Source: Fistulifera solaris (Eukaryota). From it: a stretch of DNA of 64,000 nt. Below are positions 55,032 to 62,168 of this stretch, piece after piece. The translations under genes and the position numbers were made by a program. Every line of letters begins with the position of its first letter. Position 1 is the first letter of the stretch. The notes under the pieces are model-generated. The model made no database searches, had not been told where the DNA came from, and saw only the letters and a list, made by a program, of their open reading frames with translations. The stretch lies in assembly GCA_030295235.1 (NCBI GenBank), contig AP026126.1:186001-250000 (forward strand). Reading direction: 5' to 3'.

Positions 55032-56432
55032 TCATCCATTACAGAGATCACGTTTTTGGGGTAAACACATTCTCTGATGGGATCCCACCAGTGGTACACC
55101 CGTTCCGCCTTTTATAGTAAACAGTGGATAGCCAATTAAACGATAATGCGTCTCCATGATAGTTGCTGGATTGTGGTAATCAATGTCATCCCGGAGGAAT
55201 CCGCAGTACACCCAACTTGACCGGCAGCCAGCATTGAAGCGTACTTCATCCAGGACTAGTGGATTGGCGCGGTGTGCGGGATAAAAACGACCATGGTCGC
55301 AACACGCCGAGTCATCGGGATCAAGATCGTGAACAACGGAGAAAAGTCCTTGCTTGGGTAACACTCGATTCACCACCGTCTGTGGATCCACCAAGGGAAA
55401 GTCACGTTCATGGGGAACCGCCTCCGTTCGGTGAGCAGCCATCAAAATGCCTTCCCGAAGCAATTCAGATATGGCGGGAATAGCATCGTATCTCATATTT
55501 AATACTAAATCCGGTTCCGAAAAATACACGTACTTCCATCTACTGGGGTTGGACCCTAACCAGGCTTGAACGTGATCGGGCTCGATCTGTTGATCGAGTT
55601 GTTTGAAGGCAGTCTGGAGTCCGAGAGCGGCCAACTTCGCGACAAGACGCTTTCCTTCCAGAGATACACCGTCATACTCGATCGAATGCAGCTCCATGGC
55701 CCGCCCAAACGACGCCATCTGGTCTCGCACCAGAGCAAAACTCTGATTGGCCAGAACTTGTTCGTGTTCCGAAATTCCCACCACAATCGCACGTCCCATA
55801 CCCACTTTCCATAACGAAATCAACGTAGCCGCGAGTTCCAATGCCAACAAATCATTTTCCTCGGCGATCCCTGATGTTACGCGTACCGGTAAAACAGCGA
55901 GGGTCGCCGGAGCGACCGCGTCCGGGGAAAGATCGTACGGTTCGGTGCGTTGTATGTACTGGGTGAGAATAGAAGTAAGTTGCTGGGTCACATTGTGTTG
56001 TACCGGAAACGCCATCATCCGTTTGACATATTGCGACCAATGCTCGACCATAAAATCCAACCAATCTTGCGTCAGGCGGATATCCCGGTAATGATGATAA
56101 ATGTACGATTGAAAGGCGACATCTTCCGGGACGCCCATGTCATCATAGTTTGTGTTCAAGAAAGAGTCCAGCCGTTGCCACCACATACCGCTATAATATT
56201 CACCGTACGAACCAAAATCAGAAGGATGCAAGAAATGGACGGTGCGCTGTGTTGGATGTTTGGGTGATGGACGCGTTTCATTGTCAATTGGGAGTTGCGT
56301 GAGGCTCGTGTTCTTTTCATATTCACAAAAACGGAATGACAACTTTTCATTCGTTAAGGAATAAAGTGAAAGAACACCGAGAAAGAAAAGAAGGAAAGGA
56401 CCCGATCGAATCTTTCCTGTCGTGTTTCCCAT
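55032..56432 (-). CDS. Type II membrane hypothetical protein
   Basis: Intact 466-aa ORF, N-terminal TM, WKYVYFSEPD..L..R motif, Cys-rich C-terminus. Confidence 0.7.
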   Translation of the reverse strand: MGNTTGKIRSGPFLLFFLGVLSLYSLTNEKLSFRFCEYEKNTSLTQLPIDNETRPSPKHPTQRTVHFLHPSDFGSYGEYYSGMWWQRLDSFLNTNYDDMGVPEDVAFQSYIYHHYRDIRLTQDWLDFMVEHWSQYVKRMMAFPVQHNVTQQLTSILTQYIQRTEPYDLSPDAVAPATLAVLPVRVTSGIAEENDLLALELAATLISLWKVGMGRAIVVGISEHEQVLANQSFALVRDQMASFGRAMELHSIEYDGVSLEGKRLVAKLAALGLQTAFKQLDQQIEPDHVQAWLGSNPSRWKYVYFSEPDLVLNMRYDAIPAISELLREGILMAAHRTEAVPHERDFPLVDPQTVVNRVLPKQGLFSVVHDLDPDDSACCDHGRFYPAHRANPLVLDEVRFNAGCRSSWVYCGFLRDDIDYHNPATIMETHYRLIGYPLFTIKGGTGVPLVGSHQRMCLPQKRDLCNG

Positions 56433-57354
56433 CGATGATTCTTGTCACCTCATGGGGTTTTGTGGATATAAAGTTCGCGGCAAGCGAAATAAATTAGCAG
56501 ATAGCAGTAATATCTTGTAGATTTGATAATGAGAAGCGCCTGCGTCTCCCGTAGCCTTTTAAATTAATCAAAGCAATCTTTCATTATTGTTTGTTCAAAT
56601 GTTCGAATCATCATCAGCATCATCAGCATCATCACAATAGCAACTTTTTCTTCGTTGTCATTGGAGAGGCGGAGAGCCACCGAAGCGAAGGATTACCGAT
56701 AAGACACATTTTCAAACTACTAAAAGTTCCGTCCCTCTCCAGAGAAGCAACAGCATTGGCATGCGACAGGCACGCACTTCCACTTGTTTCTTGGTACGCT
56801 GTTTTACGTGGCAAAAATTCGGCAATACCAGTAGGGTGTAGGGTCGCGTGTCGCGTCTCGTTTGTGGTCGCCGCGAACAAATACTTTGTACTTTACGCAG
56901 CAGTGGCCAAGGCTTCACCCTACCTTGAACCGTGAAGTCCTGATCCGGTCTACATCCAGATAAAGAGTCTTTCTTCATCCGGTACTAAGAAACATCCGGA
57001 TCGGAAATCGGAACAGTTCGCTTCAAGGCAGTCGACACCGCCATGTACATTTGGTTGGAGAGTTCGGAGACCGAAGGCGACGTACTTTCTCTATCCAATT
57101 CCGAGGACGAGAGGTGGCGAAAACAAACGTGGGTGCGACTTCGCGTTTCGGGAGCTTTGGCATGCCGTTCAAATAACTCTGTTCGCTTTTACTCGCCTTT
57201 TTCGAAGTCACTTGTCAGCGGTCCCCTTGCGTCGATTGCGAACTCGATTGATCGCAATGTCAATCGAGTTGACTATCGACTTGTAAGAAAGCGAAAAACG
57301 AGCTAACAGAGAGTCGACAAGGCATCGAAATCTGCTAGTCGAGAACTACCAGAA

Positions 57355-59656
57355 ATGAGTAAACTCAATGCTAATATGAGCAGTATACTACAAACAACAA
57401 CAACAACAAACTTGATAAATGCCACCGCGCCTCCCTGTCGCCTTGTAGAAGATGAAGCAGATCATAGAGCACACGTACTGGCAGCAGCATTGACGGAGGC
57501 GACGGGAATTCCACTCGAAGCCAGAAACGGAACCATCAACTTGCGTGGACCGGCTACCACAGATGCCTTCCTTCAACCACCAATAAACGAGAATACAGTC
57601 CTCATGACCACCATTGGACTCGGCATCGATCCATTCTTTGGACCGACTTCCATGACAGCCACGTTTGCGGCCATCAAAGCGGTACGGGATGCCATGGAGC
57701 GAACCATCTTGCGGTTTCCTTCTGACAACTCCAATCTACGTTTACACGTTCAGTTGGGCGTGCCTGCGCGGTTTCCTCAGCAAACCGCACCCATGCACGT
57801 GGATATTCAGCAAATTACTCCCTTATTGCCTTCGTTTGTGCCTCTCTTGCCCGTGGAAGTGGTAGTGGGTGGTTTGTTGAGTGGGTTGACAACTGCGACA
57901 TTTCCGCAAAACATGACTTGCACGGTTGTGGCTTGTATTTCTCTTCGCAGGATCACTTCTGTTCTGGAAGTGAGACCACCCAATTTGGTAAATCTCCCGA
58001 CGCAGTGTGAGGAGAAAAGTCCAGGAAAGACCCCCGCGCGAGTGGAAGTCGACAAGCCCGTGCATGTATGCGCGGCCAGCATGGAGGCCGCGGAAGTTTT
58101 GAGTGGATCTTTAAGTCAATCGCGAAAAGAAAACAGGTCTTTGAGGAAACAAAACAATATCGATGTACTGGCTCATATTGGTGCCGAACTTCATGAAGAA
58201 GAACCCAAAGGCGCAGCCGCATTTGGAGGCGGAGGATGCTGCTGGTAACTATAACTTCAAAAAGTTACCGCCTGGTATGACCAGCAAGAAGAATAAACGA
58301 CTGTTCGTTAAGCACAGTTACCGTGACTACTCTCACGAACATCCCTTGCCGGACGAGCTAGATTTGATGGAAACAGGGAATGCACGGACCGTGAATGCGG
58401 CTTTTCCACTGAAACTTCATGAAACGCTCTCTTTGATAGAAAAGGATGGAAATGATCATATAGTGGGATGGTTATCGCACGGTCGTTCGTTCAAAATTCA
58501 TCAGCAGAAGGAGTTTGTCGAGATGATATTGCCCCAGTATTTTGTTATGACGAAAAAGTCTTCCTTTTACGACAACTTAATCTGTAAGTTCGCTTGATAA
58601 GTTTTTAACTGTCGGAAGCTGTGATTCAAGCTAACACCTCTGTTTTTTAGGTATGGATTTAATCGCTTGTCGGGGTCGGGTGCCGATCAGGGAAGTTATT
58701 ATCATGAGAAATTTCTACGTGGAATGAAGTTTCTTTGTCGACGCATTCATAGACAGAAGGTAAACGGTAACGGGATTAGGGCCGCGGGAAATCCGGAAGG
58801 AGAGCCAAGTACGTAAATTCAAATCACCTTGTAGCAAAAGCACAACAGAGTGTTTGCTCACTCTTTCCGAACTTCAGGTCTCGGTATCTTCCCATCATGT
58901 CCTCTGAAACCATCGGAACGTCAATTAAATTCTGAACAAACGAACGGAATGCAGTTGCCCTTGTCGTCGCCTCCAGTGGTTGCAACACAAGGGAATGGGA
59001 GCCTGACATCGCTAGCTGCGTACACAAGAGTATATTTAGCTGCCAAGAAGCAAAACGAAGTCGTGGGTATTACGGAAATCGATAGAATAGACGAGGATCA
59101 GTCTTCTGCTGAGGACTCTGGATTGTCAGAAGCGGCCAAGTCGACTCAACCTCCGGCATCCTTCATCTCTGCCAGTTTTCCTCTCAAGCTCCATTGCATT
59201 CTCGATAAATTGGAATCAGAAGGATCCAAAGATATTATCTCGTGGCTACCTCACGGACGGGCCTTTCTCGTTTCTGACGTGGATCGCTTCGTTGAAGAAC
59301 TAATGCCCCGATACTTTCATATGAGCAAGTACGCGTCATTTCAGAGACAGCTGCATATGTATCATTTTCAGCGCATCACAACCGGTCGCGACAAGGGAGC
59401 TTATCATCACCCTAGTTTCCTGCGCGGCTCTTCCGATCTGTGTCTGAGTATGACGCGAACGAGGGTCAACGGAAAAGGAACGCGTAGACCCGGCAATCCA
59501 GAGGGAGAACCTGATTTTTACGAAATGGACGCCATGCCCGCCATTCCTCGTGGGTCAATCGTTGAATTTCCTACGGAGACTTCCACACCTGAACCAGCCA
59601 ATCCGGTAGCGAAGAAGCGTGTGAGAGTTTCCAGCTGTGGTAGCGAAAGCAGCTAG
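57355..59656 (+). CDS. Heat-shock factor with two HSF DNA-binding domains and an N-terminal Lin0512-like domain
   Basis: Two FPLKLH...W..HGR.F...YF...SF.RQL..Y.F.R...G.Y.H..FLRG blocks. Introns at 58584-58650 and 58809-58877. Frameshifts near 58200-58240 and 58565. Confidence 0.8.
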
Positions 59657-59953: not shown

Positions 59954-60962
59954 ATGAAAGCACAGGAAGTACTCCGTCTCGCCAAAGCTTGTCTCCAAGA
60001 CGATTCTCTTACGGAGCGGTCGGTGTCGACCCGACGCGTTTGCAGTTTATGGTCCGGTATGGGTTCCATTTATGAACTGCGCATCAATAATCGCCTCCAT
60101 GTCGCCGTCAAACACGTACCCGCGGCAAACCCGAAAGAGATGAAAGACTTTGGCGAACGCCGCAAAGCTGTCGCTTACCAAGTGGAGGGGAATTTTTACG
60201 AACATGCGGCACCCCATTTTCCAACACTCCGTTTGCCACAACTTTATCACATCGAACGTTCCGAAAATTCCATTACCCTGTGCCTGGAATGGATGAGTGG
60301 ACCTCGCTATTCCTCCCTCGTCGCGTGTGGAAGACGCATTGACTTGGCTGGCGACCTTGCACAGCGAAAGTTGGGGACGTGCCGATGCCCTTGTCGCATC
60401 GTGTGGATTGCACGCACAGGGAACGTACTGGCATTTGGACACGCGACCCGAGGAACATGCGCAAATGTCGTCCACAGGATGGGAAGGACGGTTAAAACGT
60501 GCGGCACGGGCGATTCATGATGCGCTGGAGCGCGATGTCATGCAATGCATCGTACACGGGGATGTGAAGGAGCCCAATTTATTACTCGACCCAGATGGGG
60601 GCGTGACCATGTGCGATTTTCAATACACCGGAAAAGGTTCACCCACCCAAGATTTGGCGTATTTTTTCTGTTCGTCAGTCGACACGGAGGAATGCGATGA
60701 AGAGCAATTGCTAGAGCATTATCACAAAATATTGACGCAGAAGTTAGTCGATCAATCCGCTATTCCTAGCTGGGATCACTTACAGCTTTCGATGGACCTC
60801 GCTTATTGCGATTTCTGTCGATTTATGAGTGGATGGGGTTACTGGGGTTCGGTGGATATCATTCAATCGAGAGTGCAGGCAGTTTTGAATCGCATAGATA
60901 ATGGCAAAGATTTGGGCTCGGAAGAAGCGTACGACGCTGCTATTCGCAATCATTTTTGGTGA
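59954..60962 (+). CDS. Choline/aminoglycoside/ecdysteroid kinase-like protein
   Basis: LWSGMG.I, VAVK, YQVEGNFY, LATLH, IVHGDVK..N, CDFQYTG.G..TQDLAYF; frameshift near 60305. Confidence 0.85.
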
Positions 60963-61236: not shown

Positions 61237-62168
61237 ATGGAACGACTACAACAACTGATGAACAGCATGCCCGGCGGCATGGGCGGTATGGGCGGAGGTG
61301 ACTCGCCGTCACCGGATTGCTCCGAAAAAGTACACGTGTCTTCGTTAGCCTTGCTGAAAATGTTGAAACACGGACGTGCGGGGGTTCCTATGGAAGTCAT
61401 GGGACTCATGTTGGGGCAATTTGTCGATGATTACACCATTCATTGTGTCGATGTCTTTGCCATGCCGCAATCGGGAACGACCGTCTCCGTTGAGGCCGTC
61501 GATCCGGTCTTTCAAACGAAAATGATGGAAATGCTCAAGCAGACGGGTCGTCCGGAAATGGTCGTGGGGTGGTATCATTCTCATCCCGGTTTCGGGTGTT
61601 GGTTGTCTTCTACAGATATTAATACGCAATCCTCGTTTGAGCAGCTCAATCCCCGCACGGTAGCACTCGTGGTAGACCCCATTCAGTCCGTGAAAGGAAA
61701 GGTTGTTATCGACTGCTTTCGTCTCATTAATCCGCAGCTCATGATGTTGGGACAAGAACCACGACAAACGACCAGCAACATCGGTCACTTGCAAAAACCC
61801 AGCATCCAAGCACTCATTCACGGCCTCAACCGACACTACTACAGCATCGTCATTGACTATCGCAAGAACGAGCTCGAAGAGCAAATGCTCATGAATTTAC
61901 ACAAACGGAACTGGACGGCCGGACTTAAAGTACAAAAGTACGAAGATCACCAAACGTCTACCGTTGAGCTGGTGGAAAAGATGGTCAAGCTCACTCGGGA
62001 CTACAACGAGCGAGTGCAACAAGAAGAGGGGAAAACGGTCGAGCAAATTACGGTGGATAATGTGGGAAGATCGACCCGAAACGGCATTTAGAAGCCAGTG
62101 TCATAGATTTGATGAGTTCTAACATTATTCAGTGTCTGGGAACCATGTTAGACACGGTTGTTTTTTAA
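61237..62168 (+). CDS. RPN11: 26S proteasome deubiquitinase subunit RPN11 (PSMD14)
   Basis: [26 protein letters not shown] and [18 protein letters not shown] motif. The conserved tail IDPKRHLE...[10 protein letters not shown] is in a shifted frame after 62068. Confidence 0.97.

Follow-up and report, generated by a model that had tools for sequence, protein, structure and literature searches.

Canonical heat-shock factors (HSFs), among them human HSF1, HSF2 and HSF4 and yeast Hsf1, carry a single winged-helix DNA-binding domain (DBD; PF00447) per chain, and in the canonical trimeric factor this domain is followed by an HR-A/B coiled coil. HSFs lacking the coiled coil are common in stramenopiles, as far as the available parts of two reports indicate (PMC11267843 and PMC12899012); they include factors of kelp, most of those of diatoms and many of those of Phytophthora, in which only seven of 17 HSFs have a coiled coil (available part of PMC11267843), which raises the question of how such HSFs achieve avidity and switching. 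According to the accessible portion of PMC4827209, HSFs form the largest transcription factor family in Phaeodactylum (67 members, 34% of the transcription factors), and haptophytes have PAS-HSF fusions, in which a small accessory domain of alpha+beta type is attached to an HSF DBD; a LOV-HSF fusion is likewise reported in the available text of PMC13737086, and PtHSF2 is presented as a single-domain HSF in that of PMC11986044. The Lin0512 family (PF09585, TIGR02058; Npun_R1471, PDB 3C8L) is a family of unknown function whose free proteins keep a set of polar invariants.

In the window analysed here, a stretch of 64,000 nucleotides from Fistulifera solaris, one gene encodes a Lin0512-like domain together with two HSF DBDs, as seen in profile searches and in comparison with a second copy of the gene. 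The factor shares the winged-helix DBD and its S-F-x-R-Q-L sequence with canonical HSFs, but differs from HSF1-like proteins in having two DBDs per chain, an N-terminal Lin0512-like domain and, in DBD2, His at the position of Asn74. As in the coil-less stramenopile HSFs, no coiled coil is detected in it, but it differs from them in its folded accessory domain and its additional DBD; its basic tail and VxHxYxD leader are shared with other HSFs of this genome. Compared with PAS-HSF and LOV-HSF, its accessory domain has a different, uncharacterised fold with no known ligand, and the DBD is present twice. Literature searches for the Lin0512 family, the 3C8L structure, the gene identifiers and combined terms showed no description of this architecture among the papers listed, and the matches listed for two-HSF-domain proteins included none on diatoms. 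The architecture is real, conserved and built from two known families, and apparently undescribed, while the mechanism outlined below is a proposal. The gene ties the Lin0512 family to gene regulation, and it represents a low-copy, deeply conserved HSF whose accessory domain is folded, whose two DBDs have diverged from each other and whose linker motif hardly varies.

Gene structure

The gene occupies positions 57355..59656 of the window and was modelled with three exons.

57355..58583, + strand: exon 1, from a predicted ATG at 57355; N-terminal tail, Lin0512-like domain, linker and start of DBD1, with both 1-nt indels inside
58584..58650, + strand: intron 1, 67 nt, GT-AG; spliced in a contig of run X4 whose letters are of the C5 type
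58651..58808, + strand: exon 2, from the three-exon model and read contigs
58809..58877, + strand: intron 2, 69 nt, GT-AG; spliced joint in three of four runs
58878..59656, + strand: exon 3, with linker 2, DBD2, C-terminal tail and stop
59612..59626, + strand: basic patch KKRVR in the sequence, a possible nuclear localisation signal

A second copy lies on contig C5 (locus L004) and is 89% identical to the window copy over 2772 bases; the gene is low-copy, with one per genome copy. In the C5 copy, a single open frame runs from the Lin0512-like domain into the beginning of DBD1, and splicing of the three exons yields 711 residues with a lone terminal stop. The initial annotation had read the locus as a single gene running through one frameshift. 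The single gene is borne out by the open C5 copy, by the joining of the three exons and by full fusions in relatives; in place of the one frameshift, there are two 1-nt indels relative to the C5 copy and two GT-AG introns. In the favoured reading, the gene is expressed and its product is a nuclear HSF-type transcription factor.

Origin of the frame breaks

58207..58209, + strand: A-run one base too long, an assembly error; the C5 copy is open at this site
58565..58568, + strand: T-run one base short, a probable assembly error; the C5 copy has the base

Contigs from four public runs of one study were aligned to the gene. Across 58150-58260, where a check of reads had been suggested, the extra A was absent from a contig in each of the four runs. 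Three listed window-type contigs without it showed no other difference from the window and one gap, and because such contigs otherwise match the window, the extra A is an assembly error. For the missing T, no correcting row was found among the indels listed from the contigs of the four runs. Splicing of intron 1 was seen in only one of the four runs, on the C5-type contig mentioned above.

The reading that the locus holds two separate genes, or that the window copy is a pseudogene, draws on the two frameshifts of this copy, on the missing T, for which no correction was listed, and on the observation that no single read contig from the four runs joins the Lin0512 domain to DBD1. It is nevertheless extremely unlikely. 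The C5 copy is open, the first indel is corrected by reads, and independent full fusions are found in P0078 and P0095, both proteins from MMETSP transcripts, and in the unbroken 640-codon frame of L014. Moreover, both downstream genes have one 1-nt homopolymer break each and are open in the C5 copy: an EcKL/APH-like kinase gene (window 59954-60962, + strand), with an extra C near 60317 and an open 377-codon frame in the C5 copy, and a gene for the RPN11/JAB proteasome subunit (window 61237-62168, + strand), with a missing G near 62064. The break in the kinase gene is probably an assembly error, and the contig stretch around RPN11 carries uncorrected homopolymer errors. Between the window and C5 copies, dN/dS is 0 to 0.23 in all nine segments; as judged from such sequence comparison, the gene is under purifying selection. 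Both gene copies are most likely intact.

The Lin0512-like domain

57595..57945, + strand: Lin0512-like domain, with a 3C8L / FtsZ-C-like alpha+beta fold, in which the polar invariants of the free family are lost

Profile searches matched both Lin0512_fam and HSF_DNA-bind above their cut-offs, in line with the initial assignment of the two families. Residues 84-194 of the open reading frame from 57355 (~57604-57936) match Lin0512_fam (PF09585) at E 1.4e-7 and 32 bits, against a Pfam gathering cut-off of 23.4 bits, which confirms the proposed N-terminal match. The domain was found to have a 3C8L-like fold, and in the predicted structure it folds confidently in isolation, in the absence of the linker helix; PDB entry 3C8L lists two chains, a chain count rather than a biological unit. 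With the stricter TIGR02058 profile (NCBIfam cut-off 56.85), the C5 domain scored 19.3 bits and the free C45 paralog 102, while the domain of the window copy gave no match. The DxHG, TKAA and NxxPG (NSxPG) invariants of the free proteins are missing from the fused domain, with H, G, K and P in none of 64 fused rows and N in one of 64, and so are FPYG and the acidic hairpin. New conserved polar residues have appeared: helix 1 carries E/D/R and strand 4 a Cys. In the tree, the fused domains form their own clade on a long stem.

The family had been described as mostly prokaryotic, but it is not foreign to diatoms: in the present genome, the Lin0512 search gave nine matches, and the two fused copies account for just two of these, leaving seven others. 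The free genes are L005 4058-4741 (- strand) and L007-L012 (G000 contigs C45, C46, C23 and C24). One free paralog is identical to a protein recorded at NCBI under Fistulifera solaris. Those of the C45/C46 type have a basic, presequence-like N-terminus, and the C46 copy looks frameshifted; those on C23 and C24 are tandem pairs, one gene of each having a signal-peptide-like start by eye.

DNA-binding domains

58403..58807, + strand: HSF DBD1 with basic tail, by Pfam match; intron 1 splits the domain
59177..59521, + strand: HSF DBD2 with basic tail, Pfam 76 bits; best PDB match the human HSF4 DBD, E 6.9e-16

Three pieces matched HSF_DNA-bind, at 41.5 bits (profile 1-56), 13.5 bits (profile 59-100) and 76.1 bits (profile 1-99), against a Pfam cut-off of 22 bits. 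The 13.5-bit piece, below the cut-off alone, forms one DBD with the 41.5-bit piece, the two being split by the intron. The two DBDs claimed earlier are thus supported at 41.5 and 76.1 bits, and two such stretches are also present in full-length relatives. The R.(K/R)VNG..NP..EP tail noted after each DBD is indeed there but is not special to this gene, as similar tails come after the DBD of further HSFs in the genome, L021, L025 and L042 among them, and the feature is a general one in diatom HSFs. Among the 150 HSF matches listed for this genome, judged by eye, no other pair of DBD-start matches was seen within 1 kb.

The recognition helix S-F-x-R-Q-L is intact, with the Arg corresponding to HSF1 Arg71 in 45 of 48 DBD1 rows and 19 of 21 DBD2 rows. 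DBD1 retains R-Q-L-N, whereas DBD2 reads R-Q-L-H in 15 of 20 family rows, with His at the position of HSF1 Asn74. According to the available part of PMC8379338, the HSF1 Asn at that helix position makes a water-mediated contact with the base before GAA; by analogy, DBD1 and DBD2 may therefore differ in flanking-base preference. A quick tree places DBD1 and DBD2 in separate clades (SH-aLRT 96 and 91), which puts the origin of the two-DBD layout before the family spread.

Linker motif and coiled coil

58156..58197, + strand: linker motif S-x-E-x-L-A-x-I-S-x-E, family-specific
58259..58327, + strand: conserved pre-DBD extension KKLPPG...VKHSYRD, with Y and D in 58 of 58 rows and H in 55 of 59

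The linker motif, which was absent from the initial annotation and is newly found here, is near invariant in alignment A2 (L 58/59, A 58/59, S 56/59), and none of the remaining HSF frames in a scan of 32 frames matched its regular expression. Judged from its sequence, it is probably an amphipathic helix. For the stretch 58259-58402, which includes the pre-DBD extension, dN/dS between the window and C5 copies is 0.06.

The absence of a coiled coil, remarked on at the outset, was borne out in a crude, home-made heptad scan: no HR-A/B coiled coil was detected in the C5 model (score 0.39) or in 20 relatives (at most 0.56), and a control pair scored 0.76-0.78. As a distinguishing feature, this absence is weakened, since only two of 16 other HSF frames of the genome scored as coiled in the same crude scan, the other 14 being coil-less. 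The two (L036 and L040, on G000 contigs C5 and C6) are the only scanned HSF pair in which a coiled coil clearly follows the DBD and are candidates for the canonical HSF of this genome.

Distribution in diatoms

A phmmer search with the Lin0512-like domain alone gave 68 representatives at 50% identity, comprising four free Lin0512 proteins, one spurious match and 63 others. At least part of a DBD is present in 54 of these 63, and two DBDs in 25; six of the nine lacking a DBD still have the linker motif and are apparently truncated, either at an intron or where the contig stops. Four named species were found among 28 fusion clusters looked up. Seminavis robusta, Mayamaea pseudoterrestris and Cylindrotheca closterium have two DBDs each, so that the fusion sought in other diatoms is found, and Nitzschia inconspicua has one DBD in both annotated alleles (P0016 and P0094), which end ~100 aa past DBD1, short of DBD2. 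The single DBD could be due either to loss or to a short gene model. All four species are raphid pennate diatoms. On this comparative evidence, the architecture is common to many diatoms and deeply conserved, with raphid pennates as its established range.

Proposed mechanism and alternatives

The Lin0512-like domain had been suggested to provide either oligomerisation or ligand sensing. Since it has kept its fold and lost the ancestral polar site, we favour, at roughly even confidence, an oligomerisation or interaction module. The domain would stem from the duplication of a Lin0512 protein resident in diatoms, be non-catalytic and be retained as a protein-protein module, and could oligomerise the factor via the face of its sheet that carries no helices, as a dimer or trimer with four to six DBDs per complex. 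From HSF structures, each DBD would read one nGAAn unit, making one chain bivalent, and the conserved linker helix might dock on the domain as a switch or recruit a cofactor. A bolder version, itself unlikely, is that a duplicated Lin0512 protein became a globular, ring-forming hub replacing the HSF coiled coil and giving a factor of four or six DBDs of two kinds, gated by the linker helix or by a metabolite also handled by organelle-targeted free Lin0512. If true, such a hub would represent a novel mode of HSF assembly and switching, and it would give the Lin0512 family its first functional handle.

The sensing branch is weakened because the fused domain has lost nearly every polar residue that is invariant in the free family, and oligomerisation is the better guess. 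A one-component sensor, in which the domain would have a remodelled pocket for a small molecule and control the DBDs allosterically, is a real if unlikely possibility: the algal PAS-HSF and LOV-HSF fusions are precedents, at least from the available parts of their reports, the new polar residues on helix 1 and the Cys in strand 4 would suit it, and in Listeria innocua 6 bp separate the Lin0512 gene from a MarR-like HTH regulator gene upstream of it (L049 3542-4366). However, this neighbour is absent beside the Azospirillum Lin0512 gene and thus present in one of two contexts examined, and no ligand for the family was found in the literature searched. In a quite unlikely monomeric arrangement, the linker helix would pack on the domain within the chain, or both would recruit a co-regulator, with no oligomerisation; against it, the isolated domain is predicted to fold confidently with the helix removed. 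The fused domain might also be a divergent subunit pairing with a free Lin0512 protein, for which the free paralogs in the genome and the two tandem Lin0512 domains of P0069 could speak. This is very unlikely, as the free paralogs look organelle-targeted: the first 40 aa of C45-type free proteins are basic and acid-poor (median 7 R+K and 1 D+E, n=77), unlike those of fused proteins (3 and 4, n=65), and the C23/C24 type starts, by eye, with the signal-peptide-like stretch.

Additional observations

A weaker conserved helical motif, D-x-R-x-x-E-T-A-A-x-L, is present near the family N-terminus (window 57460-57500). Upstream and divergent from the HSF gene across ~900 bases is a 470-codon open frame (window 55032-56444, - strand) with an N-terminal hydrophobic stretch and no Pfam match. 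A Lin0512 gene on a contig labelled as a Pirellulaceae MAG (L051 1-2852) groups with a centric-diatom protein in the tree; Lin0512 was above cut-off in only one of 401 genomes of that phylum, and the contig is likely algal contamination.
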